From the NCBI GenBank assembly GCA_965214055.1, contig OZ243931.1, positions 2,607,380-2,671,379 on the forward strand: DNA of 64,000 nucleotides. The letters run 5' to 3'. This stretch comes from Candidatus Poriferihabitaceae bacterium (GTDB lineage Bacteria > Pseudomonadota > Gammaproteobacteria > Arenicellales > Poriferihabitantaceae). The notes beneath the pieces are model-generated. The model saw only the letters and a program-made list of their open reading frames with translations, was not told the origin of the DNA and did not search any database. Below are positions 20,368 through 38,357 of this stretch, piece after piece. How positions within the stretch are numbered: the stretch's first letter is position 1; each line of letters opens with the position of its first letter. A program made the position numbers and the translations under genes.

Positions 20368-21165
20368 TCACTCCCCGATACGGTGCACTGTACAAAGAAC
20401 ATGAAAGCACTAAATTATATCCGAGTCGTGCTGATGGAACCTACCCATCCGGGGAATATTGGTGCCACCGCCCGGGCCATGGCCAACATGGGGGTGAAAC
20501 AGCTCGCGTTGGTCAATCCCGGGGAGTTCCCCAGTTCCATTGCCACCCGCCGTGCCGCCGGTGCGGATTCCATACTGGAAAAGGCCAGAGTGTACCATCG
20601 GCTGGAGGATGCGGTGGCGGATTGTACTTTGGTGTTGGGGACCACTGCCAGATTGCGTTCCATTGAATGGCCTTCCCTGGAGCCCTGGGAGGCCATGTCC
20701 CGTGCCGGGGACCATGCCCGGCATTCCCGGGTGGCCATTCTTTTTGGCCGGGAAAGCAGCGGATTGACGAACGAGGAAATGGATATTTGCCACTGGCTGG
20801 TGCGCATTCCCGCAAGTCCCGAATTTGGCTCCCTGAATCTGGCCTCGGCGGTGATGGTCATGCTGTATGAACTGCGGAAATGCCTGGAATCGGATCAAGG
20901 CGAAACTCTCCGGAAAAGCAAGGAATCCAGGGCCACCGTGCAGGACCTACAATATCTGTACAGGCATCTGAAGCAGGTCTTGAATCGAATTGAGTTTATC
21001 AATGGCCGGTCGACGATGTTGATGCGGAAAATTGTGCGCATGTTCAATCGAATACACCCCTATGAACAGGAAGTGAATATGCTTCGGGGGATTCTGTCTT
21101 CCATTGAATCCAGGCTGGACAATCCGGAAAAAAGGGGGCACAGGGACAACTTCCCGGAGTCGTGA
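20326..21165 (+). CDS. trmJ: tRNA (cytidine/uridine-2'-O)-methyltransferase TrmJ (SpoU/TrmH class)
   Basis: 'IRVVLMEPTHPGNIGATARAMANMG', 'LFGRESSGLTNEE' and 'SLNLASAVMVMLYE'. Likely start is the ATG at 20401 (MKALNY...). Confidence 0.9.
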   Translation: MIGAGSLDEVPGAQSLPDTVHCTKNMKALNYIRVVLMEPTHPGNIGATARAMANMGVKQLALVNPGEFPSSIATRRAAGADSILEKARVYHRLEDAVADCTLVLGTTARLRSIEWPSLEPWEAMSRAGDHARHSRVAILFGRESSGLTNEEMDICHWLVRIPASPEFGSLNLASAVMVMLYELRKCLESDQGETLRKSKESRATVQDLQYLYRHLKQVLNRIEFINGRSTMLMRKIVRMFNRIHPYEQEVNMLRGILSSIESRLDNPEKRGHRDNFPES

Positions 21166-21637
21166 CCCCGGGGATTGGGATTTTACCGGCCCGCGGGCAG
21201 TCTCCCACGCTCGAATACATCCATCCCAAACGACATCGGGTTCCTGGTCTTCTTGCGATCAACCCTGCCGCCCGGGAGTGCTCATACCGTTCCGCATGTT
21301 GTTTGGGTGTCAACAGGGACGGTTGCGGGGACGCCGCCTGGTGGAACTCATTGATGGCCGTTCGACCCAGACGTTTCAGCTTGCTTCAAATACAACATTT
21401 ACAGTGGCACTATCTTTGGGGTTCTGCCAAAAAGCCCCCGAAACCCACAGGAGCCTCGGTTCGAATCCAAAACGGAACGGACCATGGATGTGAAGTTGAG
21501 AGTCCGTCGGATTGCAGCACTCTGGAGCACAGGACCGTTTGAGTCGACTCGACCACACACCGGTTTCAGTTGTAGCTCAGGTTGGAAACATTTCCAGCAT
21601 GCCGATTGACACAAAAGTTTATCATTAGTAAACTTAT

Positions 21638-21904
21638 TTGATGTATATTATTCACTATCAGAAACAAGCTGCTTACAGACTTATTCGCATGCCACCTAAA
21701 CTTGCAAGTAAAATTCGTGACAAGGTTGAAACAATAGCAAATAATCCCTATCAACATCATCCGAATATTACATGGCTGCAAGGGCAGAAAAATTGTTTCC
21801 GGCTCAGGGCAGTAAATTGGTGCATAGTCCATGCTTTGGAAAAAGAGCGAAATTTGCTTCTGATCGCAAAAATTGATCAAAGAGGACAGGTGTATAAACG
21901 ATGA
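21638..21904 (+). CDS. RelE/ParE-superfamily type II toxin
   Basis: 88 aa. 'AAYRLIRMPPKLASKIRDKVETIANNP...FRLRAVNWCIVHALEKERNLLLIAKIDQRGQVY' follows the RelE/ParE pattern. 4-nt overlap with the downstream HTH gene (toxin-first, HigBA-like order). Confidence 0.75.
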   Translation: MMYIIHYQKQAAYRLIRMPPKLASKIRDKVETIANNPYQHHPNITWLQGQKNCFRLRAVNWCIVHALEKERNLLLIAKIDQRGQVYKR

Positions 21905-22302
21905 ACGAGTCGAAAGTGCAATTTATAAAAAAAGGGGAAGACCCGGAGTATGTTGTATTGCCAATTAAGGATTATCTTGAAATGACTTCATTTTTGGAGG
22001 ACGTTGAAGACCGGGCTGCCGTTGATCGGGCATTAGTGGACTATCAGAAGGGTACCACTGTTCCAGGCGAAGTGGTGAACGCTGTTTTGGATGGCGTATC
22101 GCCGTTGCGGGCATGGCGAAAAAGTCGAGGCTTTACACTGGAACGGTTGGCCCGGCGTGTTGGAGTATCCAAAAGCTACCTTTCTCAAATCGAAAACAAT
22201 CGGAAATCTGGCTCACTAAATCTGTACCGTCAGATTTCAATTGTTTTGAATGTCTCTGTCGATGACCTGATCGACTGGAGAGAGGATACGGGTGTTGTCT
22301 GA
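21901..22302 (+). CDS. XRE-family HTH antitoxin (HigA-like) with N-terminal extension
   Basis: 133 aa. 'LRAWRKSRGFTLERLARRVGVSKSYLSQIENNRKSGSLNLYRQISIVLNVSVDDL' is a canonical HTH_XRE domain. Confidence 0.8.
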   Translation: MNESKVQFIKKGEDPEYVVLPIKDYLEMTSFLEDVEDRAAVDRALVDYQKGTTVPGEVVNAVLDGVSPLRAWRKSRGFTLERLARRVGVSKSYLSQIENNRKSGSLNLYRQISIVLNVSVDDLIDWREDTGVV

Positions 22303-22655
22303 AGTGGACGCAATTTGATTTCTGTCGTGCGCCGTGGAAGGGCGCGTTCCTGGTTGGTGCGTTCAGGGAGGGATGCGCGGTAGTCGGGTTGGTGACAGAC
22401 ACAGACCTGAGGCGTACCGGTCAGGAGAGATCAAAGGGGTAGTGGGATGAGGTGCACCACTCGGTGAACGGATGGTTCCACCGAGTCGACATCCCGTTTT
22501 TTGATGGCCGATGCAGTGTGTGTAAGACGCCTGATCGATCTGAAAGCTCGCCGCCGGAAATCAGCACGTCCGGTTCGGCAAGCAGGGAGTGGAGATGTGG
22601 CCAATGCGGAAATAGCGGATCTACTCGCAAAACCGAACGGGCGGGAAGGGAACAG

Positions 22656-22711
22656 CCTCCGCTTGCCCGTGCCCGTGCCACCCTCCGCTTGCCCGTGCCC
22701 GTGCCACCCTC
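22656..22711. repeat. 26-bp tandem duplication (2.15 copies) with nested GCCCGT repeat
   Basis: Read directly: period 26 from 22656 to 22711 (CCTCCGCTTGCCCGTGCCCGTGCCAC...). It lies in a 510-bp gap with no credible ORF. Confidence 0.85.
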
Positions 22712-22812
22712 TGACTTTGCAGAAGCTATCATTCTCCGTACCCCTATAGAGATTGGGAGTATCCGGACAAAATTACCTTGCAATTTTGAACTAGAACCTC
22801 AATAATACAAGG

Positions 22813-24021
22813 ATGATTCCCCGGGGAGCTCGGAAAGTTGTACAAACTCGCCTGAAACAGTTCGACAGTGTGGCGCTGATTGGCCCACGCCAGGTGGGCA
22901 AAACAACGCTGGCGCATCAGGTTGCGACCAGGTGGAGTAGCGGAGCGAAGTACCTGGATCTTGAAAATCCTTCGAACCGGCGTCTTCTGGATGATCCGGT
23001 TGAGTACCTTTCCGCAAATACCGACCGGCTCATTGTTCTGGATGAGATTCACCGGATGCCCGGGCTATTCCAGGTATTGAGGGGACAGATCGACGAACGT
23101 CGTCGAATGGGCAGGAAGGACGGAAAGTTCCTGATTCTCGGCTCGGCATCGATGGAACTTCTGCGCCAGTCGTCCGAAAGCCTGGCGGGCCGCATCAGTT
23201 TTGTAGAACTGGTGCCGCTCACCTTGCCCGAAGTACGGGGGCAGGACATCGCCGTTGCCGGAGGGGCAGCGGTGGAAATCGACCGACTCTGGCTACAGGG
23301 CGGCTTTCCTCCCAGTTATCTTTACAGCGATGAGAGCACTAGTTTGCAGTGGCGGTTCGATTTCATCCAGACGTACCTGGAGCGTGATCTTCCACAATTC
23401 GGTCTGCAGGTGGATGCCGAACGCATGAACCGATTCTGGCGCATGATCGCAAATGATCAGGGGGAGCTTTTTAATGCCCAGCGCTATGCAAGGTCCCTGG
23501 GGGTGAGCGGGCATACCGTTACCCGTTATCTTGAAATCCTCCAGCGGTTGCTCATGATTCGACTGTTGCAGCCCTGGCATGCCAATATCGGCAAGCGCCT
23601 TGTCAAATCGCCCCGACCCTATGTGCGGGACAGCGGTATCCTGCATGCATTTCTGGGCCTGCGCACCAAGGATGATCTCAGGTCTCACTCGGTGGCTGGC
23701 AGGAGTTGGGAAGGGTTTGTCATCGAAAATCTTGTGAGTGCGGCCGCTGGCCGGGCAAGGCCATATTTTTATCGTACGAGTGCGGGTGCAGAGATAGACC
23801 TGGTATTGGAATTCGCCTCCGGAAATTGCTGGGCGATCGAAATCAAGTTGTCCAGTGCACCGAGCATAGATCGGGGCTATCTCAATGCAGTCAATGACAC
23901 CGGAGCGGAACGAAGGCTGTTGGTACACAAGGGGGTGGAATCGTTTCCCATGCGCTATGGAGTCGAAGCAATGCCGTTGTTGGAAGCCATGAACGAAGTC
24001 AGTGTGGCGGTGAGCGCATGA
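22813..24021 (+). CDS. AAA ATPase with C-terminal DUF4143 (PD-(D/E)xK-like) domain
   Basis: 402 aa. Walker A 'GPRQVGKTTL', Walker B 'LIVLDEIH', 'LGSAS...SESLAGR' and C-terminal 'GAEIDLVL...WAIEIKLS'. Same family as ORF 58626-59903. Confidence 0.85.
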   Translation: MIPRGARKVVQTRLKQFDSVALIGPRQVGKTTLAHQVATRWSSGAKYLDLENPSNRRLLDDPVEYLSANTDRLIVLDEIHRMPGLFQVLRGQIDERRRMGRKDGKFLILGSASMELLRQSSESLAGRISFVELVPLTLPEVRGQDIAVAGGAAVEIDRLWLQGGFPPSYLYSDESTSLQWRFDFIQTYLERDLPQFGLQVDAERMNRFWRMIANDQGELFNAQRYARSLGVSGHTVTRYLEILQRLLMIRLLQPWHANIGKRLVKSPRPYVRDSGILHAFLGLRTKDDLRSHSVAGRSWEGFVIENLVSAAAGRARPYFYRTSAGAEIDLVLEFASGNCWAIEIKLSSAPSIDRGYLNAVNDTGAERRLLVHKGVESFPMRYGVEAMPLLEAMNEVSVAVSA

Positions 24022-24192
24022 ATTCCCAAGGAGCACAGGTTTCAGGAAAGCTGCCCCGGGTCGATCAGAATGGCAGGAGGCCTCTCATCACCCCAGCGTC
24101 CTGTTGACGGGTTGCGGGTGCCCTTTGTTATTCTGGGCGAGGCCGGGATGTGCAAGACAGGCTGATGGATGATTCCCTATCCCGAATAATTC

Positions 24193-24242
24193 ATAAAAAT
24201 GGAGTGAGAAAGAGAGTGAGGCCTCTTTTTATGATATAATTC
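24193..24242. repeat. 50-bp direct repeat, left copy (identical to 34067-34116)
   Basis: CGAATAATTCATAAAAATGGAGTGAGAAAGAGAGTGAGGCCTCTTTTTAT, compared base by base: 50/50 identical with the right copy. Confidence 0.95.
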
Positions 24243-24285
24243 AATTAGTTATAATAATTACAGGACGACCTACTCGTGACAGATT

Positions 24286-25120
24286 GTGCTCAAAAAGTTA
24301 TTTCATTTCCAGCCCTGAAATGACGTTGGATCGAGGCTGAATTCACCGGCGGGGACATTACTTCGGATACCGGAGCACTGTTTCTAAGAGAAATAGACCG
24401 TTATTGGGGATTGCTCAAGGCCGTGGACAAGGCGATTCCCGATGAACGGGATCGACGCTATATCCAACATTCTCAGTTAAACCTGATAAGACAGCGGGTG
24501 TATGGTCTGGCACTGGGATATGAGGACCTCAATGATCAGGATACGATGCGGTCCGACCCGGCGTTGGTGTATGCCGTGGAGTCGGATTAATCCCTGAGTA
24601 GGGCTTCGACTCTTTGTCGATTAGAGAATCGCATGAAATCCCACGCTTGGCATTTCGCATGGGCCGACCCACGGCGGTGGCCTTGTATGAGGTCATGATC
24701 GAGACCTTTATTGCGTCGTTCAAGAAGCCTCCGGCGGAACTGATTCTGGACTTTGACGCTACCGATGATCGGGTCCATGGGGACCAGGAAGGCCGGCATT
24801 ACAATGGCTATTACCATCATCATTGTTTTTTGCCGCTTTATGTCTTTTGCGGGGACCAGTTACTGGTCAGTTATCTGCGACGCAGCAAGGGTCAGGCGAA
24901 GCACGCGTGGTGCATTCTGGCGTTGCTGGTCAATCGGTTCCGTCAGCAGTGGCCCGATGTGGAAATACTTTTCCGGGGAGATGCCCGGTTCTGCCGTCAT
25001 GACATCATGACCTGGTGTGAACGCTATGGGGTGGGGTATATCGTTGGAATTGGCCGCAATCAGCGGATTACGAAGCGGTCCCAGGTGACCCGCCTGAACA
25101 GTTCAGACCCTGTACCATGA
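24286..25120 (+). mobile_element. IS1380-family transposase gene remnant (pseudogene, 3'-truncated)
   Basis: - The translation starts 'VTDCAQKVISFPALK*RWIEAEFTGGDITSDTGALFLREIDR...LIRQRVYGLALGYEDLNDQD...'.
- It continues with 'ASTLCRLENR'.
- After a frameshift it reads 'LILDFDATDDRVHGDQEGRHYNGYYHHHCFLPLYVF...'.
- In-frame stops lie at 24321 and 24588, and the frameshift is near 24640.
- The C-terminal third of the protein is absent. Confidence 0.8.
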
Positions 25121-25531
25121 CCTATGCTCCGAAACCCTGTTATCTTTCTTCAGCACTTTGGACTGACTCTGAGTACAGCGATTGAAAACTCCATGGAAAA
25201 GCACACACTGCTTCAGGCTCACTTCAGGATTGGAAAACACTGCCCTGATTTCACCCAATATTGGCCCGATTCATTGGAAATGCCCGGTCAGCGACCCGAA
25301 AAGCCCTTTGCGACTTTTGACTTTCCTTGCTTTGGGGGTTGAAAAGTATCGGGCTGTTTGGCTATAATTGTTCCATAAGAACCATTGATTGTTATCATAA
25401 GAAACCCTGGGGATTATGCCCACAGGGTCAGGCAGGAGAATCTGGGCGTGAACCGGGTTCGGTTGTATTTACCCAGATTATACACAGCACATACACAATA
25501 CAGAGATAAAACCAAAATAGAATAGAACAGA

Positions 25532-25549
25532 AATCGGAATCGGAATCGG
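25532..25549. repeat. Hexanucleotide microsatellite (AATCGG)x3
   Basis: Read directly in the AT-rich spacer upstream of the poly-C tract. Confidence 0.8.
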
Positions 25550-25670
25550 AAAGTTCCGTTACTAATTCATGATTACAAGGCAGGTCGAGTCGCCGTACCG
25601 CCGTGCCAGCATGACTACCCTCGTTACATGCCGGCATGCCTTTGTTTGGTCTACCGCCCCGCCTGAACCA

Positions 25671-25686
25671 CCCCCCCCCCCCCCCC
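25671..25686. repeat. Homopolymeric poly-C tract (16 C)
   Basis: Counted directly: 25671-25686. It sits at the point where AT-rich spacer DNA changes to very GC-rich DNA, ~335 nt upstream of the likely ATG (26022) of the giant gene. Confidence 0.95.
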
Positions 25687-26003
25687 GGTAGGTTTCCTCC
25701 GGCTCCCGCACCGCAGCGGGTTCTCGGCCTGTCGTCCGCCGTCTGTGGCGCGATTTTTCCACCGCGCTATTCTCCCTGGCGATGTTCGCAGCCGGAGTGC
25801 AGGCGTCCGCGCTGCTCAGCCGCCTCGGCCAGGCGGGCGGCCGTACCGGAACTTTGGGCAACGACCGCATCCAGCGGTTCACGACCGGCGACTACGCGAA
25901 CGGATACAACCCGACCGGTGTCAAGATGGAGCCCACCAAACTGGATGCCAGTGATGTCGCCGGCGCCGCTTGAGCGATCAGCATCTGGACCGCCAACAGT
26001 TCT

Positions 26004-29000
26004 GTGCGTGCGGGTCCGACCATGAAGGCCAGCACACACCGGCGTACCCCGATCCGTAGTGCCGCGTCCCGTGCACTCCTTCAGGTACTGGCCGCATGGG
26101 CGCTCGCCCTGCCGCTCCTCGCGTTGCTCGCGCCCGTCGCCGAAGCGAACTCGGCCAACTGTTCCGCGTCGAGCGGTCCCTACCCAGCCCACGAGGACTG
26201 GGTGTTCACGCCCGGGAGTCTCGACGCCGGCGACACCTTCCGCCTGCTCTTCGCAACAAGCGCGAAACGCAGCGCGGACTCTGTACTCCCGTCCGTGTAC
26301 AACGACTTCGTGCGCACCGCCGCCAAGGGCGGACACGGTCAGATCCCCGCAAGCTGCGGGAACAGGTTCAACGCGATCATCTCGACGCAGTACGACTCTG
26401 CGCGGTTTAACACAAGGACCAGGGCGACCGACACCGACGCACCCATCTGGTGGGTGAAGGGCGAGAAGGTCGCAGACAACTACGCCGACTTCTACGACGG
26501 GTCCTGGGACAGCCGCATCGCAAGGAACGAGTACGGAACGACCCCCATCATCGATTACAGGGTATGGACCGGAAGCTTGTCGAACGGGCACCACCCCGGA
26601 ACCGGCTACGCAGGCCACTTCGGCGTTGAGGTCCATCGAGGCCACCTCACCACGGGCGATCCACTGAACGCGGGAAGCACGAACAGCGGTGCCAAGTATC
26701 GCTTGTACGGTCTCTCGCCCATCTTCACCGTGGTGAAGGCCCCGCGGCTTTCGATTTCGCTCAACAAGACTTCGGGGAACGAGCTGAATTCAGCGGGAGG
26801 CCATGCCACCATCACGGTCAAACTCGACCAGACGCGCCCCAACGACACGTCGTTCAAGATGTGCGTCAAGAACACGAGCACCGCAACGTTTCGCACGAGC
26901 ACCAGCACAAACGACCGCGATTTCGACCTCTACGAGTACCGTCTCGACGCCCACGCTCAGCTCGTTGAGCTCGCCGTCGACGCCTCGAACTGCCACACGA
27001 TGACGATCAAGAAGTTCACCTCAGAACACAAAGCCCGTCTGTTCTACTACGGAGACACCCTGAAGGAAGAGAACGAGACCGTGGTGCTCGAGCTGAAGGA
27101 CCCGCCGTCGGACGTCAAGATTGCCTCCTCCGGGGGCACCGCGACGTACACCATCACCAACGACGACTCCGAGCCCACCGTGACCATCACCGGCGGTGCA
27201 ACGGCGTCCGAAGGCACCAACGCGACCTTCACCGTCAAGTCGAGCCACGCCCCCACGCAAGCCCTCTCGGTCAAGGTGAACATCACCGAAGACGAAGACG
27301 CCGACACGGGGAAGGACCACGTCGCCGCCGACGACGAGGGCGTGCGCACGGTGACGGTCGCTGCGGGCAGCACGAGCCAGTCGTTCACGGTGCCAACGAC
27401 CGAGGACTGGGTCGACGAGCCCGACGGCGTCATCACCGCGACCGTGCAGGCGGGGACCGGCTACGTCGTCGGGCAGGCCAACAAGTCCGCGCAGGTGAAC
27501 GTCAAGGACGACGACACGCGCGGGTTCGTGTTCCGTCCCGAAAGGCTGAAGCTCAAGGAAGGGGGAAGCGCCACCTACACCGTGGCGCTCACCTCGCGCC
27601 CGCTCGACGAGCCCGAAGGCGTCACCGTCACGCTGACGCCCTTGGGCGACTTCACCGTGGACACCGACAGCAGCAAGGACGGCAACCAGACGACGCTGCG
27701 CTTCGACGCCGTGGGCGGGAACCTCTGGCAGTCCGGACAGACGGTGAAGGTCACTGCGAACGAGGACGCGAACAGCACCGACGACACCACCGCCATCAAC
27801 CACGAAGGGTCCGGTGCCGGTTACGGCCCACGCCCCGGCGCCGATTTCGGCGCGCTCCTGGGCATCGTAGTGACCGTCACCGACAACGACGTCCCGCACC
27901 TGGTGGTCGCGCCGACCGCGCTCAGCGTCACCGAAGGCGGCAGCGCGACCTTCACCGTGCAGCTCGGGACGCAGCCGTCCGCCGACGGGACCCTCGCGTT
28001 CGCCTCGACGAACCCGGACATCACCTTCAACCCCGCGAGCCTCAGCTACTTCAAAAATGACAGTCACCAGACCCAGGGGTGGGACAAGGTGCGGACCGTG
28101 ACCGTCCATGCCGCGAGCGACAACGACATCGGCGACGACGCAGCGACCTTGACCGTGACCGCCTCAGGGGGCGACTACGAGGGCAAGACCGCGACCATCG
28201 CCGCCACCGTCACCGACACCACCACCCCGGCGCTCGTGCTCTCGACCAGCACGCTCGCCGTCATGGAGGGCGCGAGCACCACCTACACGGTCAAGCTCGC
28301 CGCCAAGCCGACCGGGACGGTGACGGTCGCCATCGGGTCGAACAACGGCGACGTCATGGTCGATACCGACAACGATGACACCAACGGCAACCAGAACAGG
28401 CTCACCTTCAACGCCAACGGCAGCAACCTCTGGAGCACGGCACAGACCGTGAAGGTCACTGCACGCGGCGACGCCAACACCGCCAGCGAGGCCGTGACCC
28501 TCACCCACACCGCCTCGGGCGGCGGCTACGGCGCGGTCAGGAAGACGCTCTCGGGCACCGTCACCGACGACGGCAAGAAGACCGTCGCGTTCGCCCAAAC
28601 GAACTACCCCGTCATCGAGGGCAAGGGGCCGGTGACGGTCACGCTCGTCATGTCCGAAGCGCGCACCTCGACCACCAACGTGAGGGTCTCCGCGACGCCG
28701 CTGACCGCGACGGGCAGCGGCGTGGATTACACCGGCCAGGCCTTTGTCGCGACGTTTGCGGCAGGGAGCACGAGCGCGACCTTCGAGATACCCATCACGG
28801 CGGACAACAATCTCGAGGATGCGGACGGAGAGACATTCCGGCTCGACATCTATGACGTCGACTTTCCGGGCGACCTGAAGAAGGTCAAACCCGACTTGGC
28901 CTACGTCACCATCTACGACGCGCCGGTCCTGTCCTTCACCCGCCCGGAGACGACGACGGTCTTCGAAGGCGGGCGTCCGCTCGAGTTCACCCTGAACGCC

Positions 29001-32000
29001 CGCGCGCCGTACTTCGACGAGACCGACGGGTCGCACGGCTTTGCCCATGTCCGGCTGTCGGGACGGGCAAGCTCGTACAGCGACTATCGCATCGAGTACT
29101 GGTACCCCAACCTCGGCTGGCTGAAGGGGCGGAACCTCATCGCAATTCCGGTGGGTAAGCCGAGCGCCCGCGTACGCGTGACGGCGCTTGAAGACGGGCG
29201 CAAGGAAGGACGCGAGACGGCGACCCTCACGCTGATTGAGCTCCCGCAGGTCTACCGCGACACGGGGCAACCGTTCTATCGCGCAGGGAGCCCCCGCACG
29301 GTGAACTTCACCGTGGCCGACCGCGAGACGGTGGAACCGCGCGTTGAGTCGATCGCGCATCACGACCCGGCCACATCGACGGCTGTTTCTCCGGCAAGCC
29401 TCACCTGGCGGGTGACCTTCGACGAGGAGGTGCACGGTGTCGATGCGAGCGACTTCACGCTGACGGGCACCAGCGCGACGCTCGCCGTGACGCGGGTCGC
29501 GGGCACGCATGCGTTCGACGTCACCGCCTCGGGCGGGAACCTCGGGCGCATCACCGGCGGACAGGTCGTACTCGGCCTGGCGAGCGACAACGACATCACC
29601 GATGGCAGCAGCAACGCATTCACCCGGTGGGACGAATTCACGAGCACGTACTGGGTCCACGACGGCACCACACCGCCGCCACTGCCGGTGGTGACGGTCG
29701 TGGTCACGAGCAACTCGGTGGTCGCCGAAGGCGCAAGGACACTCTTCACGGCGAGTCCGAGCGTGTCGCCGAGTACAAACCTGCAGCTCAATGTGACGAT
29801 GGCCCAGAGCGGCGATTTCTTCCAGTCCGGCCACCTTGGCAAGCGATCGTTGTCGTACAGCCGTAGCGCGGGTAATTGGCAGTACGGCCCCCGCTCGCAG
29901 AACGACGCCGTCGACGAGCCTGACGGCAGCCTCACGCTGACCATCGACAGCGGCGACGGCTACACCGTCGGGAGCCCGCCCTCGGCGACGATTACGATCA
30001 GGGACGACGACCCGACGGTGGTGAGTCTCGCCCGTACGGGCACCGGCGCGGTGACCGAGGGCGGCACCGTCGAGCTTGACGTGACGCTCGCCCGCGCGCT
30101 CGTCGCCGGCGAGACCATCGACGCACCGCTCGCCATCGGCGGCACGGGCGTGACCACCGGCGACTGGAGCGTAGGCAAGAAGTCGGGTGCGACCAACACG
30201 GGCGTGACGCTCCTCGATGCGGGCACCACGACCCCGAAGGTGCGCTTCGAGGGCGCGGGGGCGCAAACGGCGACGCTTGAGCTCACCGCGACGGCGGACG
30301 GCACGGTGGAGGGCGTCGAGACCTTCACCGTCGCGCTCGGCGCGGACAGCGCCTTCGACGACTCAAGCCTCGGCACCAACGTCGGCGGCGGCGCCGACCC
30401 CCACGGCACGGACAACACCTTCGACGTGACGGTGAACGACGGCGCCGCCCCGCCGCCGGGCACGCCCGCGGTCGGGTTCGCCTCCGCCACCTCAAGCGCG
30501 GCCGAGGATGCCGGCACGCACAACGTGACGCTCGACCTCGCCCCGGCGGCGCCCTCGGGCGGCCTTGACATTGCCTACGCCGTCACCGGCACGGCGATGG
30601 CGGGCAGCGGCAACGACTTCACCATCGCGGGCTCGGGCACCCTCAGCGTCGCGGCCGGGGCGACCACGGCGAGCGTCCCCATTGCCATTATTGACGACAG
30701 CACCGACGACGACGCCGAGACGGTGGTGCTGACGCTGAGCCCGGGCACGGGCTACACGCTCGGCGGCACGACGGTCCATACGCTGACCATTGCCGACAAC
30801 GACGACCCAATCACGCCGACGGCTTGCGTGTCGGCGCAGTTGTTGAGCGACGTCCAGGGCTATGCGGGCGAGAACCGGCCGAACTCGCCGGACCATGTCG
30901 AGCGCTGGAGCCGGGTGCTCGCCGCCTTCGGGGAGAGCAACAGCTACGACAACAACCCGATGACCGCGAGCGAGGCGCAGACCCAGGCCGACAGGGGCTT
31001 GGCCCGCTGGGTGCCGGTGGTGACCGCGCTCGAATGCCTCGAGGGCACGCCGCCGCCGATTGTCCCCCAAGTCACGGTGCAGGGCGGCAGCGCCGTCACC
31101 GAGGGCGGCAATGCGGTGTTCACCGTCAGCGCGAGCTCAAGTCCCGCGGCGGCCCTCACGGTGACGCTCACCGTTGCCGATGACGCGAGCAGCGATTTCT
31201 TAAGCGCCAGCGACCAGGGGGAGAAGACGGTCAGCATCGCCGCCGGCCAGACCTCCGCTACCCTGACGGTCCCGACGCAAAACGACAGCACCGACGAGGC
31301 CGACGGCAGCGTGACGGCCACTGTCGCAAGCGGTACCGGCTACACCGTCGGGAGCCCCTCCACCGCCACGGTGGCAGTGAGTGACAACGACCCGACACCG
31401 CAAGGGACACCGGTCGTTCGCATCGCCGCGGGCACCGGCGTCACCGAAGGCGCCAGCGCCGAGTTCACGCTTACCGCATCACCCGCCCCGACCGCGTCCA
31501 TCACCATCAACGTCGCCGTCACGCAGAGCGGCGACTTCGCGACGAGCGGACAAGCCGGGACGCGCAGCGTCACCATTGGGTCGAGCGGCACCGCGACGCT
31601 CACCGTCGCCACCGACGACGACAGCACTGACGAGACGAACGGCAGCATCACCGCCACCGTGCAGACGGGCACCGGGTACACCGCGCACGGGACACAAAAC
31701 GCCGCTACGGTTGCAGTGGACGACGACGACGCCCCGACGTTAAGCATCACGGGCGGCGCCGGCATCACCGAAGGGGGAACCGCAGCGTTCACCCTTACGG
31801 CAAGCCCGGCGCCGGCAGCCGCCATCACCGTCAACGTCGCCATCACGCAGAGCGGCGACTTCGCGACGAGCGGACAGACGGGGACGCGCACCGTCACCAT
31901 CGGGTCGAGCGGCACCGGCACCGTCAATGTCACGACCATCAACGACACCGCCGACGAAGCGAACGGGGCCATCACCGCCACCGTGCAGGCGGGCACCGGC

Positions 32001-34040
32001 TACACGGTCGCGACGGCGCCGAACCATGCGGCAAGCGTCACCGTCGCCGACGACGACGCAGCGCCCGGTGCTCCGACCATCTCGATTGCCGATGCCACCA
32101 TGAAGGAGAGCCATGTCAACGGATATTTCAAGGTGACACTGAGTGAGAAGGTGGACTGGCCGGTCAGGGTCCACTACGCGACGCGGGACTCGACACCGGT
32201 GTCGGCCGTGGCGGGCCAGGACTACCTCGCGTGGAAGCGGTCCTGGCAGCTCAGCGCCCGGTTCAAACCGGGTCAGACGGAAACGCAGATTCACGTCCCC
32301 CTCTACAACGACAGCCACGACGAGGACCCGGAGACCTTCGAGGTAGTGCTGTTCGACGCGCGCGTGAACGGCCCGCCCGGGGTGTCGGTGTCGATTGCGG
32401 ACGGCGTCGCCGTCGGGACCATTGTCAACTCCGACCCCATGCCCGCGGCATGGCTCGCGCGGTTCGTTCGCGCCACGGCCGAACAGGCCCTCGACGGCAT
32501 CGCCGGGCGCATCGCGGCTTCACGAACCGCCGGGATGCGCGGCACCATCGCCGGACAGGCGATCAACTTCGATTCCGGACCGGGGTCCGGGGAAGACCCT
32601 GATGGATCGGCGGCGAATGGGAATACTGCCCCGGGCAGCCTTGCCGACAATGACCTGTTCGCACAGTCCAATGTCGTCCGCGCCTTCGATGCCGGCAGGG
32701 GTGGAATCAACCACGACGCACATGGCTTCGACCCGGATCGTTTCACAGACGGCGACGCACAATCCTGGTCCATGACGACCCGCGAAGCCTTGCTCGGCAG
32801 CAGCTTCACGGCAACCGGGGAGAAGGATGCCATGGGCGGCAGCCTCGCCTTCTGGGGCCGGGCGGCGCAGTCAAGCTTCGACGGACAGGAGGGAACCTTC
32901 TCCCTCGACGGCGAGACCACCACCACCATGCTCGGCGCCGACTATGCCCGGGACAACTGGCTGGTCGGCATGGCGCTGATGCAGGGCAGCGGCAAGGGCA
33001 AGTATGCCGATACCGACGTCATGCCCCGCCCGGCTTCCCAGACCTGCCCCGAGGAAGTGGAGAAAATGAATAACGCCCTGTGCAGCGGTACCGTGCGCGA
33101 TGGCGACGGCAAGATTGAGGCCTCAATGACCGCGGCGGTGCCCTATGCCTCCATCCAGGCATCGGAGCGGTTGAAGCTCTGGGGTGCCCTGGGGTATGGC
33201 ACCGGGGAGGTGACGCTGAAGCCGGATGCGGGTACGGATGAGAAGAAGGAATCCTACCAATCCGACATCTCCTGGAACATGATGGCGGTGGGTGGACGTC
33301 AGGAGTTGCTGTCTTCCCCACAGAACGGCCCAACACTGGACCTGACCGGGGATGCCCTGTGGGCGCGGACGGAATCGGACAGGACAAACGCCCTGGCGGC
33401 ATCGGATTCCGATGTGACCCGGTTGCGCCTGGGTCTTGAAGGCAGCTGGCGCATTGCCACCGAAGGCGATGGCAGTATCACGCCCAAGCTCGAACTTGGC
33501 GTCCGCCAGGACGGCGGGGATGCGGAGACCGGGTCCGGGATGGAGCTGGGCGCCGGCATTGCCTGGAGCGATCCCGGTGCGGGCCTGAGTCTGGACCTTT
33601 CCGGTCGTACCCTGATTACCCATACCGAGGAGGACCTGGAGAACGAGGGCTTTTCGGTCTCGTTCCACTATGATCCGAAACCGGCCTCGGCACGGGGGCT
33701 GGAGCTTTCCCTGAGCCAGGAGATCGGTGGACCATCCACGGGAGGACTCGATGCGCTGTTTGCGTCCGAGCCCTTGAGCGAACGTCCGGACAGCGACGAG
33801 GACAGCCGTTTGAAGCTGGAAGCCGCCTATGGCTTCCCGGTCTTCTCGGGGCAGTACATCGGCAGCCCGCATATGGGGCTGGGCTTCGCCACTGGCGCGC
33901 GCGACTACAGCTTGGGTTGGAAACTGACGCCCTCGAAGAATGCACCCGATGTCTCTTTCGGCCTGCAGGCGACGCGAAGGGAGAGCGATATGGCCAGGCC
34001 GGAACATACCGTTGGGTTCGAAATCAACGCGCGGTGGTAG
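26004..34040 (+). CDS. Giant (2678-aa) type Va autotransporter-like surface protein with Calx-beta-like repeat passenger
   Basis: - Likely start is the ATG at 26022, followed by the signal peptide 'MKASTHRRTPIRSAASRALLQVLAAWALALPLLALLAPVAEA'.
- An N-terminal globular domain spans ~26170-26730.
- About 18 repeats of ~100-110 aa follow the pattern '...TEGxxAxFTVxLS...VxVxxx...DY...tvTfaAGxTsxtftVpxxdDxxxEpdExxtvtl'.
- One repeat is a canonical Calx-beta module, with 'GQDY' and 'FKPGQTETQIHVPLYNDSHDEDPETFEVVL' (~32083-32435).
- The linker is 'PMPAAWLARF'.
- The C-terminal beta-barrel-like region (~32838-34037) ends in '...VGFEINARW', a terminal aromatic residue. Confidence 0.85.
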   Translation: MRAGPTMKASTHRRTPIRSAASRALLQVLAAWALALPLLALLAPVAEANSANCSASSGPYPAHEDWVFTPGSLDAGDTFRLLFATSAKRSADSVLPSVYNDFVRTAAKGGHGQIPASCGNRFNAIISTQYDSARFNTRTRATDTDAPIWWVKGEKVADNYADFYDGSWDSRIARNEYGTTPIIDYRVWTGSLSNGHHPGTGYAGHFGVEVHRGHLTTGDPLNAGSTNSGAKYRLYGLSPIFTVVKAPRLSISLNKTSGNELNSAGGHATITVKLDQTRPNDTSFKMCVKNTSTATFRTSTSTNDRDFDLYEYRLDAHAQLVELAVDASNCHTMTIKKFTSEHKARLFYYGDTLKEENETVVLELKDPPSDVKIASSGGTATYTITNDDSEPTVTITGGATASEGTNATFTVKSSHAPTQALSVKVNITEDEDADTGKDHVAADDEGVRTVTVAAGSTSQSFTVPTTEDWVDEPDGVITATVQAGTGYVVGQANKSAQVNVKDDDTRGFVFRPERLKLKEGGSATYTVALTSRPLDEPEGVTVTLTPLGDFTVDTDSSKDGNQTTLRFDAVGGNLWQSGQTVKVTANEDANSTDDTTAINHEGSGAGYGPRPGADFGALLGIVVTVTDNDVPHLVVAPTALSVTEGGSATFTVQLGTQPSADGTLAFASTNPDITFNPASLSYFKNDSHQTQGWDKVRTVTVHAASDNDIGDDAATLTVTASGGDYEGKTATIAATVTDTTTPALVLSTSTLAVMEGASTTYTVKLAAKPTGTVTVAIGSNNGDVMVDTDNDDTNGNQNRLTFNANGSNLWSTAQTVKVTARGDANTASEAVTLTHTASGGGYGAVRKTLSGTVTDDGKKTVAFAQTNYPVIEGKGPVTVTLVMSEARTSTTNVRVSATPLTATGSGVDYTGQAFVATFAAGSTSATFEIPITADNNLEDADGETFRLDIYDVDFPGDLKKVKPDLAYVTIYDAPVLSFTRPETTTVFEGGRPLEFTLNARAPYFDETDGSHGFAHVRLSGRASSYSDYRIEYWYPNLGWLKGRNLIAIPVGKPSARVRVTALEDGRKEGRETATLTLIELPQVYRDTGQPFYRAGSPRTVNFTVADRETVEPRVESIAHHDPATSTAVSPASLTWRVTFDEEVHGVDASDFTLTGTSATLAVTRVAGTHAFDVTASGGNLGRITGGQVVLGLASDNDITDGSSNAFTRWDEFTSTYWVHDGTTPPPLPVVTVVVTSNSVVAEGARTLFTASPSVSPSTNLQLNVTMAQSGDFFQSGHLGKRSLSYSRSAGNWQYGPRSQNDAVDEPDGSLTLTIDSGDGYTVGSPPSATITIRDDDPTVVSLARTGTGAVTEGGTVELDVTLARALVAGETIDAPLAIGGTGVTTGDWSVGKKSGATNTGVTLLDAGTTTPKVRFEGAGAQTATLELTATADGTVEGVETFTVALGADSAFDDSSLGTNVGGGADPHGTDNTFDVTVNDGAAPPPGTPAVGFASATSSAAEDAGTHNVTLDLAPAAPSGGLDIAYAVTGTAMAGSGNDFTIAGSGTLSVAAGATTASVPIAIIDDSTDDDAETVVLTLSPGTGYTLGGTTVHTLTIADNDDPITPTACVSAQLLSDVQGYAGENRPNSPDHVERWSRVLAAFGESNSYDNNPMTASEAQTQADRGLARWVPVVTALECLEGTPPPIVPQVTVQGGSAVTEGGNAVFTVSASSSPAAALTVTLTVADDASSDFLSASDQGEKTVSIAAGQTSATLTVPTQNDSTDEADGSVTATVASGTGYTVGSPSTATVAVSDNDPTPQGTPVVRIAAGTGVTEGASAEFTLTASPAPTASITINVAVTQSGDFATSGQAGTRSVTIGSSGTATLTVATDDDSTDETNGSITATVQTGTGYTAHGTQNAATVAVDDDDAPTLSITGGAGITEGGTAAFTLTASPAPAAAITVNVAITQSGDFATSGQTGTRTVTIGSSGTGTVNVTTINDTADEANGAITATVQAGTGYTVATAPNHAASVTVADDDAAPGAPTISIADATMKESHVNGYFKVTLSEKVDWPVRVHYATRDSTPVSAVAGQDYLAWKRSWQLSARFKPGQTETQIHVPLYNDSHDEDPETFEVVLFDARVNGPPGVSVSIADGVAVGTIVNSDPMPAAWLARFVRATAEQALDGIAGRIAASRTAGMRGTIAGQAINFDSGPGSGEDPDGSAANGNTAPGSLADNDLFAQSNVVRAFDAGRGGINHDAHGFDPDRFTDGDAQSWSMTTREALLGSSFTATGEKDAMGGSLAFWGRAAQSSFDGQEGTFSLDGETTTTMLGADYARDNWLVGMALMQGSGKGKYADTDVMPRPASQTCPEEVEKMNNALCSGTVRDGDGKIEASMTAAVPYASIQASERLKLWGALGYGTGEVTLKPDAGTDEKKESYQSDISWNMMAVGGRQELLSSPQNGPTLDLTGDALWARTESDRTNALAASDSDVTRLRLGLEGSWRIATEGDGSITPKLELGVRQDGGDAETGSGMELGAGIAWSDPGAGLSLDLSGRTLITHTEEDLENEGFSVSFHYDPKPASARGLELSLSQEIGGPSTGGLDALFASEPLSERPDSDEDSRLKLEAAYGFPVFSGQYIGSPHMGLGFATGARDYSLGWKLTPSKNAPDVSFGLQATRRESDMARPEHTVGFEINARW

Positions 34041-34064
34041 GACCCAGGATCATTTCACCCTTAA

Positions 34065-34128
34065 CTCGAATAATTCATAAAAATGGAGTGAGAAAGAGAG
34101 TGAGGCCTCTTTTTATAAATTATTCGAG
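34065..34128. repeat. 64-bp hairpin-type element containing the right copy of the 50-bp direct repeat (34067-34116)
   Basis: Perfect 11-bp terminal inverted repeats CTCGAATAATT (34065-34075) and AATTATTCGAG (34118-34128). An internal AAAGAG/CTCTTT stem is followed by a T-run, so it is terminator-like. The left copy (24193-24242) lacks the right inverted repeat. Confidence 0.85.
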
Positions 34129-34557
34129 CTATTGATCATCGATGGTCTGTGAAAAACCTCCCTTTATCAATTTCGTGCCGTTCAGCCCAATGGCGGACGA
34201 CAGCACGGTTTGACACAGCGGATGACTATAGCCAGGCCCCGGAAGGTATTTGGCCTTGGGCCATTTGCCAAAGAAGAGGCAATTGGAATATTCTCTCGCG
34301 AAGCGGGCAGGGAAAAAGACTGAAATCGGTCCGGTGTTGGGCTGTTCACGGTGGACATCCTCGAAAGTGGATTTTTTTACCTTTTACCAATACAAATGGC
34401 GCCGCACTCCATGTATCATAGCCCCCACAGAAGGGTGGACGCCACCCGGTCGGTACGTGGGCATTCCGCGTACGGGGAGATTGCAGACATTTTTGAATTT
34501 CAGGGTTACTCTATTTTTACCCAATTTAACTTCTTTACCAATCAGGGGGCATACACA

Positions 34558-34755
34558 ATGAATGCGATACGTGAATCCATGAGCCAATGGACTCAAATTC
34601 AGACCATGACAGTGCCATGGTCAAAGGTGGTGGGAATCGCTGCGGCACTATTGATGGGGTTTTTCATCCTTTATTCGGTTGGTTTCGCATCACCTGAAGT
34701 CATTCACAGCGCGGCTCACGATGCCCGTCACGGAATGGCGTTTCCCTGTCACTGA
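34558..34755 (+). CDS. cbtB: Cobalt transporter subunit CbtB
   Basis: 65 aa from the ATG at 34558, with one TM helix and a C-terminal 'HDARHGMAFPCH' motif characteristic of CbtB. A purine-rich (AGGGGG) Shine-Dalgarno-like run sits 8 nt upstream. Confidence 0.8.
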   Translation: MNAIRESMSQWTQIQTMTVPWSKVVGIAAALLMGFFILYSVGFASPEVIHSAAHDARHGMAFPCH

Positions 34756-34765
34756 AAAACATTTT

Positions 34766-35491
34766 ATGGCCGGAGGGTTCATTCACCGCATTTTCTGGAC
34801 GGCACTGATCGCCGGCGGTTTTGCGGGACTGGTTCTCGCCGGTATCCAGCAGTTCACGATTGTGCCCATGATTCTGGAAGCCGAGACGTATGAAACCGGC
34901 GACAGTGATCAGGGTCATCGTCACGAGCCCGAAGAGCAGGCCGACGGACACTCCCATGGAGCCTGGAGCCCCGAAGAGGGGATGGAAAGGAGCGTCTTCA
35001 CTTTTATGAGCACGATGGTCGTGGGCATGGGGTTCGCCCTGCTGCTGGTTGCCTGTTACGCAATCCGGGCCATGATCATGGAGTCCCGCATACACTGGCG
35101 ATGGGGGATACTCTGGGGTCTTGGCGGGTTCGCTGCATTTCACTTGGCACCTGCCCTGGGCATTCCTCCGGAGTTGCCGGGCGCGGCAGCGGCTGAATTG
35201 AGCGGACGCCAGGGATGGTGGTTGCTGACGGTGGGTTTGACCGCAGGCGGACTGTTGTGTCTCGTCTTTGTTCCCGGTGCCTTCCGGTGGTCTGGATTGC
35301 TGCTGATTGCACTGCCTCATCTGACCGGGGCTCCACAACCGGAAACCCCCGGCGGCCTAGCTCCGGTAGAACTAACAAGAGATTTTGTCTATATGTCATT
35401 GTTTACCAATGCTATATTCTGGGTCGTACTGGGGTCCGTGACGGCCTACCTCTATGACCGGCTGGGAGTCGACGATGGGGTCCCGGGATAA
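34766..35491 (+). CDS. cbtA: Cobalt transporter subunit CbtA
   Basis: Start at the ATG at 34766 (MAGGFIHRIFWTALIAGG...). Multi-TM protein with a His-rich loop 'DQGHRHEPEEQADGHSHG'. Immediately follows cbtB. Confidence 0.8.
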   Translation: MAGGFIHRIFWTALIAGGFAGLVLAGIQQFTIVPMILEAETYETGDSDQGHRHEPEEQADGHSHGAWSPEEGMERSVFTFMSTMVVGMGFALLLVACYAIRAMIMESRIHWRWGILWGLGGFAAFHLAPALGIPPELPGAAAAELSGRQGWWLLTVGLTAGGLLCLVFVPGAFRWSGLLLIALPHLTGAPQPETPGGLAPVELTRDFVYMSLFTNAIFWVVLGSVTAYLYDRLGVDDGVPG

Positions 35492-35646
35492 GCCGCACTC
35501 CGGGGCCTCGAAGGGAAAAACCACCGCCGTTCCCATTGGCCAGGGCCTCCCGTCCGCAGTTTCCCGGCTTTTGGGCTCATACGGGTCAATGCATGGAGTG
35601 ACCTGCCTCGGAATGCCGTCGAGAAAATGATCCGGCAACGAAGGTT

Positions 35647-36120
35647 CTATATCTCCATTTCGTAGGTATTCCATTTGGTTTTACTGGATATCCGGTCATA
35701 AAGGCTTCGGGCGCGGTAGTTGTCGTCCGCAGTAATCCAGCGTATTTTTGGCCACCCGCGTTCCCTTGCCGTGGACTTCAACGCGTCGAACAGGGCGTCA
35801 CCAACCCGGTTGCCGCGAAAGGCCGGGTCCACGAACAGATCATCGAGAAATCCGATATTCATCCCTCTGAGCGGGCTGGGCATTCTGCGGACATGGGCCA
35901 ATCCGCAGGGAGAGGAGTGGCCATGGAGAAATGCGAGCAGGCATTCGATTTCGTGGTCTTCATCCAGAATCCAGCCCCATAACGTATGGAGAATGGTTTC
36001 ATTCATGGGTACCTTGTAAAATTCAGCATAGCCGGCGTACAGTCGACACCAGTCCTCGAAATTTTTATGTTTCGGGGAGCGGACAACGATTGGATTTTTT
36101 ATTTCGGTTTTCGGGGTCAT
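35647..36120 (-). CDS. GNAT-family N-acetyltransferase
   Basis: 157 aa. 'LDDLFVDPAFRGNRVGDALFDALKSTARERGWPKIRWITADDNYRARSLYDRI' is an acetyl-CoA-binding motif A region. Confidence 0.8.
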   Translation of the reverse strand: MTPKTEIKNPIVVRSPKHKNFEDWCRLYAGYAEFYKVPMNETILHTLWGWILDEDHEIECLLAFLHGHSSPCGLAHVRRMPSPLRGMNIGFLDDLFVDPAFRGNRVGDALFDALKSTARERGWPKIRWITADDNYRARSLYDRISSKTKWNTYEMEI

Positions 36121-36158
36121 GGAATGTGGGTTCCAGGCATGGGTCCATTCACCGCAAG

Positions 36159-36890
36159 TTACAGCGACTTCAGTGCACTGGAAGTAAAGACGGACAGGCT
36201 TTGCTTTTGTTGGCCCTGGTCATCAAAGTTGTCGGGCGAAAGCCATTGTTGAAAGGCCGGTTTGATCGCGGGCCATTCCCGGTCAAGCAGGGAAAACCAG
36301 GCGGTATCCCGATTTTGTCCTTTCACGACCTGCATCTGCCGAAAAGTGCCTTCATAGGTAAAACCCAGCCTCCGTGCCAAACGGCAGGATGACTCGTTGA
36401 GTGCGTTGCACTTCCATTCATACCGGCGATTGCCCAGTCGGAACGCGTTTTCCATCAGCAGGAACATCGCTTCGGTGGCCGCAGTTGTTTTTTGCAGGAG
36501 CGGGGAGTAGTTGATGTGGCCGACCTCAATGGACCCGTCCCGGGTATTGATGTTCAGATAGCTGACCACCCCCGTTGCCATCCCGGTGGCGTGATCGACG
36601 ATGGCATAAAACCAGGGGTCACCCGTAAAACAGGTCGAAGCCATCCATTCCTGGAAGAGACCGAACTCATCAAAGGGCCCGTAACCGAGATAAGTCCATA
36701 CCCGGTCTTGCCGGTCGGATTGGTAGGCCGTGAACAGGTCCTTGCCATGGGCCTGTGTATTGAGCGGTTCGCATCGGCAATATTGGCCCTCCAGCACTTC
36801 CCGGCCGGGTCGTTGGGCCCCGGACCAGTCCGGTACGTCAAACCCAATGGGCAGCCCCAGTGAAGTGGTTTGGTTCAAGGGAGTGGTCAT
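36159..36890 (-). CDS. GNAT-family N-acetyltransferase (RimJ/RimL-like, Acetyltransf_3)
   Basis: Likely start is the Met at 36890 (MTTPLNQ...). 'SIEVGHINYSPLLQKTTAATEAMFLLMENAFRLGNRRYEWKCNALNESSCRLARRLGFTYEGTFR'. Confidence 0.8.
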   Translation of the reverse strand: MTTPLNQTTSLGLPIGFDVPDWSGAQRPGREVLEGQYCRCEPLNTQAHGKDLFTAYQSDRQDRVWTYLGYGPFDEFGLFQEWMASTCFTGDPWFYAIVDHATGMATGVVSYLNINTRDGSIEVGHINYSPLLQKTTAATEAMFLLMENAFRLGNRRYEWKCNALNESSCRLARRLGFTYEGTFRQMQVVKGQNRDTAWFSLLDREWPAIKPAFQQWLSPDNFDDQGQQKQSLSVFTSSALKSL

Positions 36891-37169
36891 GATTGTGGGA
36901 ATGCAAAATAAAATGGGTTGATATTGTGAACAATCCGGTTTCCGGAATCGACGGGAAGGTATGCCAAATGTGGTGGCAGTGTGAAGATTGCTTGGTAACC
37001 GAATGACCCGGACGGTCTCGATTTTAACATGGGACGGGCCCTGTCCATCCGGGTTGCACAAGAATGATCCGGCCGTTCCTGCCCCCGTGTCTTGCCGGGT
37101 CTGGCCGGCATGGTTTTCCAGTCCAAAGCGCCAGACGGAGTGCGCCCGGTGCGGCGGCAGGCCATCATT

Positions 37170-38357
37170 TCAAAGTACCTTGTCCAGATCGTTGATAATG
37201 TCAGAGGCATCTTCCAGTCCCACTGAAAACCGGAAGAGGCCATCCCCGGCCAGCGCACGATAGGCCTCCAGGTCGCTTCCCTCCAGCCGGTAGGAGGATT
37301 CAATCAGGTCCCGGGTTTCCAGGAGGTAGATCAGACTTCGATGGTGGCCCAGCGAGACGGCATAATGCACTACCTGCAGGCCCCGCATGAACGCTTCGGC
37401 GGTTTTGCGGGGATTTTTGACCCGAAAGGAAAGCATGCCGGAAAAATTGTCCATCTGCGTCCTCGCCAGTTCGTGGGACGGGTGGGAGGGGTGTCCGGGA
37501 TACAGGACCGTTTCCACCCGGGGATGGGCATGGAGATACTCTGCCACCTGCAGGGCATTTTCCTGGTGTGCCTTCATGCGCAGGGGCAGCGTCGCCGCAC
37601 CGCGCATGATGAGCCAGGCATTGAATGGGCTGATGGTGGCGCCATAATGTAGCACTCCGTCGCCGCGAAGCGATGAAATCAACGCCTTTGAGCCAAGGAT
37701 CGCACCGCCGAGTGCATCGCCATGGCCGCCAATGTATTTGGTCAGGGAGTGAATGACCAGGTCGGCCCCCAGGCTGATTGGACAGGTTCCGATCGGGGTG
37801 GCAAAGGTGGAGTCCACTGCCAGCAGTGCCTGGTTGCCTCGGGCGATTTTGGCCATCGCCGCGATGTCTGTAATGCGCAACAGCGGGTTGGAAGGAGTTT
37901 CCACCCAGATCATCCGGGTGTTGGAGCGCATGGCATTTTGAACACTGGCCAGGTCCGAGGTGTCCACGGGGGTCACCTCAACCCCCCTGGCAGGAAGATG
38001 ATCCCGGGCCAGTTCCGCGGTTCCCGGATAATTGGTATTGCTGACAACCAAATGGTCCCCCGGGTTCAACTGGGTCAGCAGCACGCCGGTGGAGGCTGCC
38101 ATTCCGGAAGCCAGTGCCAGGCAATCTTCGGCATTTTCGAGCAGCGCCAGCTTTTCTTCGAGTTGACGGATGGTTGGATTGGACCAGCGGGTGTAGACAT
38201 AGGGGGAATCGTCATCGATGTTGGTGGCGGAAAAACTCATGGGTTCGTCCACAACGAACGTACTGGACATGACAATGTTGGGTGCTGATGCCCCGGTCTT
38301 GCCATCCGGTTTTTCTCCGCCGTGAATGGCGACGGTCTGAATGCCTCGATTTTTCAT
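37170..38357 (-). CDS. Cys/Met-metabolism PLP-dependent enzyme (cystathionine gamma-synthase / O-acylhomoserine sulfhydrylase / methionine gamma-lyase family)
   Basis: Start at the Met at 38357 (MKNRGIQTVAIHGG...). 'YTRWSNPT' and 'SLTKYIGGHGD' (PLP lysine). The exact reaction is not assignable from sequence. Confidence 0.85.
   Translation of the reverse strand: MKNRGIQTVAIHGGEKPDGKTGASAPNIVMSSTFVVDEPMSFSATNIDDDSPYVYTRWSNPTIRQLEEKLALLENAEDCLALASGMAASTGVLLTQLNPGDHLVVSNTNYPGTAELARDHLPARGVEVTPVDTSDLASVQNAMRSNTRMIWVETPSNPLLRITDIAAMAKIARGNQALLAVDSTFATPIGTCPISLGADLVIHSLTKYIGGHGDALGGAILGSKALISSLRGDGVLHYGATISPFNAWLIMRGAATLPLRMKAHQENALQVAEYLHAHPRVETVLYPGHPSHPSHELARTQMDNFSGMLSFRVKNPRKTAEAFMRGLQVVHYAVSLGHHRSLIYLLETRDLIESSYRLEGSDLEAYRALAGDGLFRFSVGLEDASDIINDLDKVL

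Follow-up and report, generated by a model that had tools for sequence, protein, structure and literature searches.

Direct repeats around a giant Calx-beta autotransporter gene are IS1380-family ends and probably bound a transposition unit

The two identical 50-bp direct repeats that bracket a 9.9-kb segment of the 64-kb stretch of DNA analysed here (the window) are terminal sequences of IS1380-family elements. We put the probability at about 0.75 that the segment from 24181 to 34128 is an IS1380-family transposition unit, either a 'transposable module' of the ISEcp1/ISPme1 type or a decayed composite transposon. From its left inverted repeat (IRL, starting at 24181) to its right inverted repeat (IRR, ending at 34128) the unit measures 9,948 bp, and it sits between a DUF4143-ATPase gene and cbtB. 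Its make-up is as the first-pass annotation had it: an IS remnant (24181 to ~25090), a spacer, a poly-C tract and one 8-kb gene. The features are as follows.

24177–24180, no strand: target-site duplication CTAT, left; identical to 34129–34132 and fits YTAN
24181–25095, + strand: degenerate, 3'-truncated IS1380-family IS, comprising about the first 880–893 of ~1650 bp
24181–24199, + strand: IRL of the IS1380-family element, CCCGAATAATTCATAAAAA; aligns with the sister IRL CCCGAATATTGCAAGAAA and matches the IRR at 34110–34128 at 17/19 positions
24183–24232, + strand: left 50-bp repeat copy, in the left terminal/subterminal region of the IS; exact match to 34067–34116
25096–25560, no strand: spacer of ~475 bp, ~48% GC (host-like)
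25339–25368, facing the giant gene: candidate sigma-70 promoter-like site, TTGAAA-18-TATAAT, 11/12 against the consensus
25671–25686, + strand: C16 homopolymer, 317 bp before the GTG at 26004
26004–34040, + strand: giant gene for a Calx-beta autotransporter; 2,672 aa when read from the ATG at 26022
34061–34064, no strand: inner flank of the mini-IS, TTAA; fits YTAN and differs from the outer flank CTAT
34065–34128, + strand: mini-IS (MITE-like), 64 bp, made of 52 bp of IS left end and a 12-bp IRR tip
34067–34116, + strand: right 50-bp repeat copy; exact match to 24183–24232
34110–34128, - strand: IRR closing the 9,948-bp unit; inverted-repeat match to the IRL
34129–34132, no strand: target-site duplication CTAT, right; read from the sequence
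34133–34140, no strand: 8 bp, TGATCATC, which together with CTAT replaces the ~75-bp block of the relatives (alignment A1)

The repeat (CGAATAATTCATAAAAATGGAGTGAGAAAGAGAGTGAGGCCTCTTTTTAT) is identical at 50/50 positions between its two copies, and two matches to the 50-mer were reached in 0/100 shuffles. A search of the 64-kb window allowing up to three mismatches found no copies beyond these two. The first-pass annotation had recognised the identity and had located the right copy correctly, but its left copy was placed ten bases too far along (24193–24242 instead of 24183–24232). It had also let the left copy run into an IS1380 remnant. A remnant of that family does adjoin, but the 50-mer is the terminus of this very IS and not a separate element: it starts 2 bp inside the homologous IS terminus (CCCGAATAATT... 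at 24181).

The transposase remnant matches the profile PF13701 (DDE_Tnp_1_4) with E values of 3e-26 and 7e-49 over profile positions 9–258 of 435. A search with a pseudo-protein reconstructed from it led to relatives, the best of which are named 'IS1380 family transposase' at source. The nearest intact one, P0001 (392 aa), has 84% amino acid identity, and apart from the remnant's own ORF no protein above that value was found in a collection of 5.8 billion proteins that includes the source genome; an intact copy of the exact IS of the window was likewise not found. P0001 is present four times in the assembly ERZ25069711 (L014–L017), in copies of the sister IS that are 99.6–99.9% identical over a sharply bounded stretch. 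Reading the edges of these four copies gives a length of 1650 bp, with IRL CCCGAATATTGCAAGAAA and IRR (reverse complement) CCCGTATATTTCATAAA, both inverted repeats beginning CCCG. The target duplications of the sister IS are perfect and 4 bp long in 4/4 copies (CTAA, TTAG, CTAG and TTAC, that is, YTAN).

Window positions 24276–25084 are 88% identical in nucleotide sequence to positions ~98–880 of the 1650-bp sister IS. Upstream of 24276 the two elements align blockwise to a common terminus, CCCGAATA, which lies at 24181 in the window, and the spacing from the IRL to the subterminal block GTGACA.ATTGT is the same in both (±2 bp). Because the four sister copies delimit the ends of the IS and the blocks align to 24181, the left 50-mer is the left terminal/subterminal region of the IS.

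IS1380 family target duplications are typically 4–5 bp long. The left element belongs to this family, having a PF13701 DDE transposase, terminal inverted repeats and a short target duplication (CTAT on both sides of the unit). It is no longer a complete autonomous element: the transposase reading frame contains a TAA stop codon at 24588–24590 and a frameshifting 26-bp insertion at 24629–24654, and the 3' half of the IS, including its own IRR, is lost, the break being at ~880–893 of 1650. The 26-bp insertion is flanked by a TCGCATG direct repeat, which suggests that it arose by slippage or a small duplication and is not inserted foreign DNA. Plasmid megablast with 20000–38000 gave no match, and a distant plasmid search returned solely remote IS1380-family transposase segments of 66–76% identity.

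At the right end of the unit, the 64-bp element at 34065–34128 with perfect 11-bp terminal inverted repeats is borne out by the sequence. Its inverted repeat extends to 19 bp with one mismatch (18/19; CTCGAATAATTCATAAAAA against the reverse complement, CTCGAATAATTTATAAAAA), the 19-bp sequence being CYCGAATAATTYATAAAAA. Positions 3–52 of the element are identical to the left end of the IS (24183–24232), and its right end, TTTATAAATTATTCGAG, agrees with the right end of the sister IS, TTTATGAAATATACGGG, at 13/17 positions when the printed sequences are aligned by reading. Judged by these matches, the element is the same IS in miniature, an internal deletion having reduced it to IRL and IRR. Its two flanks differ (TTAA on the inner side, CTAT on the outer), so that it lacks a target duplication of its own, as it should if it came as the right end of a larger unit and not independently. 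Like a MITE it is short and non-coding, is bounded by terminal inverted repeats (18/19) and has ends homologous to those of the window IS and the sister IS. Searches of the window, of related loci totalling 383 kb, of the GTDB representatives and of metagenome contigs revealed no further, dispersed copies with duplications of their own, and 'mini-IS' or 'internally deleted IS copy' is the safer name.

We then turn to the insertion site. Relatives were collected by a related-locus search with CbtA and then from the members of CbtA's 90% cluster. Five of them (L001, L020, L021, L022 and L023) have flanks ~92–97% identical to the window; L001 is an Arenicellales MAG with ~92–94% nucleotide identity, L020 has ~96%, and L023 comes from the same genome as the four sister IS copies (ERZ25069711). 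In all five, window position ~24177 is joined to 34141, and the IS, the giant gene and the 64-bp element are missing. Both repeat copies thus arrived with the segment. The earlier view that the repeats mark the edges of an acquired, compositionally foreign segment agrees with the absence of 24178–34140 from 5/5 related genomes and with the cargo's GC content at third codon positions (GC3) of 0.86. A second instance of the 9.9-kb unit was not found in the sequences searched. The CTAT match between the two flanks is modest evidence, as four bases would agree by chance in 1/256 of random cases, and perhaps in 1/8 if the two ends had inserted independently into YTAN sites.

The insert is not the sole difference between the window and the relatives' sites. 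A conserved block of ~75 bp (GGCCGGCCATCAATGG...AAACTGAAAAAGTT) is present at 5/5 empty sites, where the window has CTAT and TGATCATC alone (alignment A1); the exact pre-insertion target allele would read ...GATGATTCC-CTAT-TGATCATCGATGG.... The block contains a GGAGA...TCTCC hairpin (L001, 9294–9371; L020, 9345–9419) without an Rfam match. Because the empty sites are not the exact target minus the insert, one further step has to be assumed: the target allele may already have been without the block, a deletion may have accompanied or followed the insertion, or the whole allele with the unit may have been imported by homologous recombination. The identity of the immediate flanks is 77–87%, and other intergenic stretches are equally diverged (52–73%), so that low flank identity is indecisive with regard to an imported recombination tract.

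The interval from the SpoU-methylase gene to cbtB is a rearrangement hotspot (window 21140–24180 and 34141–34560; L001, L002 and L022). It is just 275 bp long in L002; in L001 the interior of the DUF4143/AAA_14 ATPase gene is deleted between 14-bp direct repeats (window 22866–22879 and 24000–24013); and in L022 an IS630-type (DDE_3) element replaces the ATPase gene. The window itself has a tandem 26-bp repeat at 22653–22704 (two copies, 96% identical), in a diverged intergenic stretch upstream of the ATPase gene. Elsewhere in L020 (2075–4685), mutS is called as two ORFs of 413 and 450 aa, compared with a single gene of 869 aa in L021–L023; this may be a pseudogene, marking a mutator lineage, or an assembly frameshift.

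The strongest competing explanation, which we regard as unlikely, is that the IS and the 64-bp element inserted separately beside a giant gene that had arrived by other means, the matching CTAT flanks being a coincidence favoured by the YTAN preference. Such a history needs three events where one suffices. It would be in keeping with the ~75-bp block, by which the empty sites differ from the window beyond the insert, with the higher chance of matching flanks that a YTAN target preference brings, and with the record of the interval as a hotspot (the ATPase deletion of L001, the IS630-type element of L022, the 275-bp spacer of L002). However, the TTAA and CTAT flanks of the mini-IS mean that it was not inserted here as a unit, and none of the relatives examined has an intermediate, that is, the gene without the ends or the ends without the gene.

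Very improbable, in our judgement, is a generic origin of the 64-bp palindrome as a common dispersed REP-type repeat or bidirectional terminator, two copies of which would flank the gene by chance. The element does sit just past a stop codon and its palindrome is strong, with a predicted minus-strand fold of -25.1 kcal/mol (z = -6.9); the minus strand folds better than the plus strand (-17.1 kcal/mol, z = -2.4) because G-U pairs close mismatches. Of the internal terminator-like hairpin in the first-pass annotation little remains beyond this plus-strand fold: a terminator scan of 33900–34700 was empty and does not support an intrinsic terminator. At up to three mismatches the window holds two copies only, the loci from related genomes (383 kb) hold none, and the 20-nt core of the repeat has 0 matches in the GTDB species representatives. 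Its two matches in metagenome contigs lie inside unrelated coding-like sequence and were set aside as chance. Rfam searches of 20000–38000, of 34000–34800 and of the intergenic region at the L020 empty site found no family; no cobalamin riboswitch is interrupted there, and the element matches none of the known RNAs. Moreover, both copies are missing from the orthologous sites of the relatives, and the ends of the element are homologous to IS1380-family inverted repeats. The proposal of a dispersed repeat that lies on both sides of the gene by chance is largely refuted: both copies are ends of one IS1380-family element, came in together with the segment and are bracketed by a 4-bp target duplication.

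Least credible of all is an att-like duplication, in which a circular element would have integrated site-specifically into a resident REP/MITE-like sequence and duplicated its 50-bp core: identical 50-bp direct repeats at the boundaries are typical of integrase-mediated islands, but the single copy of the element looked for at the empty site upstream of cbtB is present in 0/5 relatives, without any trace of the core, which excludes duplication of a resident element; the repeats enclose no integrase or recombinase gene, the DDE transposase remnant being the sole recombination gene there; the repeat itself is the end of an IS with a DDE transposase; and the outer ends are inverted repeats, around which 4 bp are duplicated.

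We therefore return to the IS1380-family transposition unit as the preferred reading. On the left it would be bounded by the IRL of an IS copy with its transposase gene pointing at the cargo, and on the right by the IRR of the mini-IS, 24 bp past the stop codon of the cargo gene. In a single event, a transposase would have acted on these two outer ends and carried the whole unit to the site between the DUF4143-ATPase gene and cbtB, where the 4-bp target CTAT would have become duplicated. What appeared as a 50-bp direct repeat is the left-terminal sequence common to two IS-derived ends in direct orientation. As to the donor, we infer that the cargo originated in a lineage of higher GC content. 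The left IS would have decayed afterwards, by the stop codon, the 26-bp insertion and the loss of its 3' half; with the transposase dead, the unit is now fixed and immobile on its own. In its present state the unit has an IS upstream that reads towards the cargo and an IRR-like end downstream that closes it, is flanked by CTAT on both sides, and is absent from five orthologous sites, which hold the ~75-bp block that the window lacks. An authentic internal IRR is absent, the 3' half of the IS being deleted, and for this reason a one-ended transposable module (TMo) is indistinguishable from a composite transposon.

The IS1380-family elements ISEcp1 and ISPme1 mobilise DNA next to their 3' end because the transposase takes an IR-like sequence further downstream for the right end; the resulting structures are known as transposition units or transposable modules (PMC9330008). 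As in the modules of ISEcp1 and ISPme1, an IS1380-family IS lies 5' in our unit and reads towards a cargo on its 3' side, the downstream end is of the IRR type, a short direct repeat surrounds the whole, and the cargo is foreign to the host. Several differences are apparent. The right end in the window is a genuine IRR provided by a 64-bp mini-IS and not a fortuitous IR-like sequence, and with the IRR and 3' half of the IS itself deleted, read-through of that IRR cannot be shown. Instead of a resistance gene, the unit carries an 8-kb autotransporter gene, and its host is an uncultured Arenicellales-like bacterium. The target duplication is 4 bp long in the window and 5 bp long for ISEcp1. With composite transposons the unit has in common a cargo lying between two directly oriented IS-derived elements, an outer IRL and an outer IRR as its ends, and a target duplication outside both; unlike in a composite transposon, neither partner can supply transposase, since one 'IS' has shrunk to 64 bp and the other is a dead, truncated copy. 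The 64-bp element, for its part, resembles IS-derived MITEs in being short, non-coding, bounded by terminal inverted repeats and matched at its ends to the cognate IS; it differs from them in being known from one copy without a target duplication of its own, a dispersed family not having been found in the collections searched.

Between the IS remnant and the giant gene lies the ~475-bp spacer, for which no homology to the sister IS, the related loci or plasmids was found. That the spacer might be the missing 3' half of the IS was ruled out, there being neither nucleotide nor protein homology to the sister IS. The candidate promoter-like site at 25339–25368 resembles in its layout the outward promoter of ISEcp1, TTGAAA-18N-TACAAT (PMC9330008), but lies in this spacer, which is unrelated to the sister IS. 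The C16 tract further downstream is the sole homopolymer of nine or more bases in the window. A C22 tract (L018, 5979–6000) directly abuts the start codon of one orthologue of the giant gene, and no poly-C tract was found at the orthologues of L019 and L024. The two tracts are candidate switches for phase variation by slipped-strand mispairing.

The cargo gene encodes a protein with Calx-beta repeats (PF03160, E = 7e-33) and a C-terminal autotransporter beta-domain (PF03797, encoded at ~32850–33545; E = 1.5e-12, 48.2 bits against a cut-off of 26), and the protein also matches TIGR01414 (23.6 bits, cut-off 16). The N-terminus, MKASTHRRTPIRSAASRALLQVLAAWALALPLLALL, is a putative signal peptide, judged by eye. 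From this domain arrangement the protein is predicted to be a type Va autotransporter with an adhesin-like passenger. The GC content of the gene is 66.8%, compared with ~56% in the flanks, and its GC3 of 0.86 compares with 0.60–0.71 for all other long ORFs of the window; as this difference is at synonymous sites, the foreign composition is not a mere amino acid effect.

Full-length orthologues of the cargo gene are present in many large contigs, of which three were examined, all from sample ERZ25070917: L018, a circular genome of 3.56 Mb (flanks 61% GC); L019, a circular genome of 3.94 Mb (flanks 70% GC); and L024 (67–69% GC), in which the orthologue is split by a Mu-like insertion. The passenger region (26070–32570) is 86–90% identical in nucleotide sequence to the three orthologues, and their genomic contexts are unrelated. 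Neither IS1380 ends nor the 64-bp element were found beside the giant genes of L018, L019 and L024. The part encoding the barrel (32780–34040) is just 69–71% identical to the same orthologues, and the gene is thus a mosaic. In L024 (1494–12375), the orthologue with its Mu-like transposon (rve and AAA_22 genes) has as neighbours an IS21-type element and another giant gene of the Calx-beta type. The IS has a GC content of 50–52%, resembling the host lineage, and the cargo resembles high-GC genomes, so that an IS of the host lineage appears to have captured a horizontally acquired gene.

It is a reasonable inference that the locus could in principle be lost by homologous recombination between the 50-bp repeats, with one hybrid mini-IS left behind. 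A bolder and rather doubtful extension would see in the 64-bp mini-IS a portable right end, with which a transposase of the family packages the 8-kb adhesin gene along with the promoter region and the poly-C tract in front of it. The gene would then have been spread by such units (86–90% nucleotide identity) across phylogenetically distant members, of 56–70% GC, of one, possibly host-associated, community, its expression being switched by slippage in the upstream poly-C tracts.

Seen as an IS1380-family transposition unit or composite transposon, the locus would be a case of gene mobilisation of an already known and ordinary kind, and what looked like an att-like repeat becomes a textbook signature, the two ends of one IS in direct orientation. 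For annotation the lesson is that short identical direct repeats beside an IS remnant should be compared with IS termini first. The locus would also provide an example from outside clinical bacteria, dated by its decay, of an IS1380-family element capturing a large surface-protein gene and not a resistance gene. Of greater interest as leads are the poly-C tracts that precede two of the orthologues and the spread of the autotransporter gene across lineages: at least four genomes that differ widely in base composition share the cargo at 86–90% nucleotide identity, which suggests an active exchange of adhesin-type genes among co-occurring uncultured bacteria.
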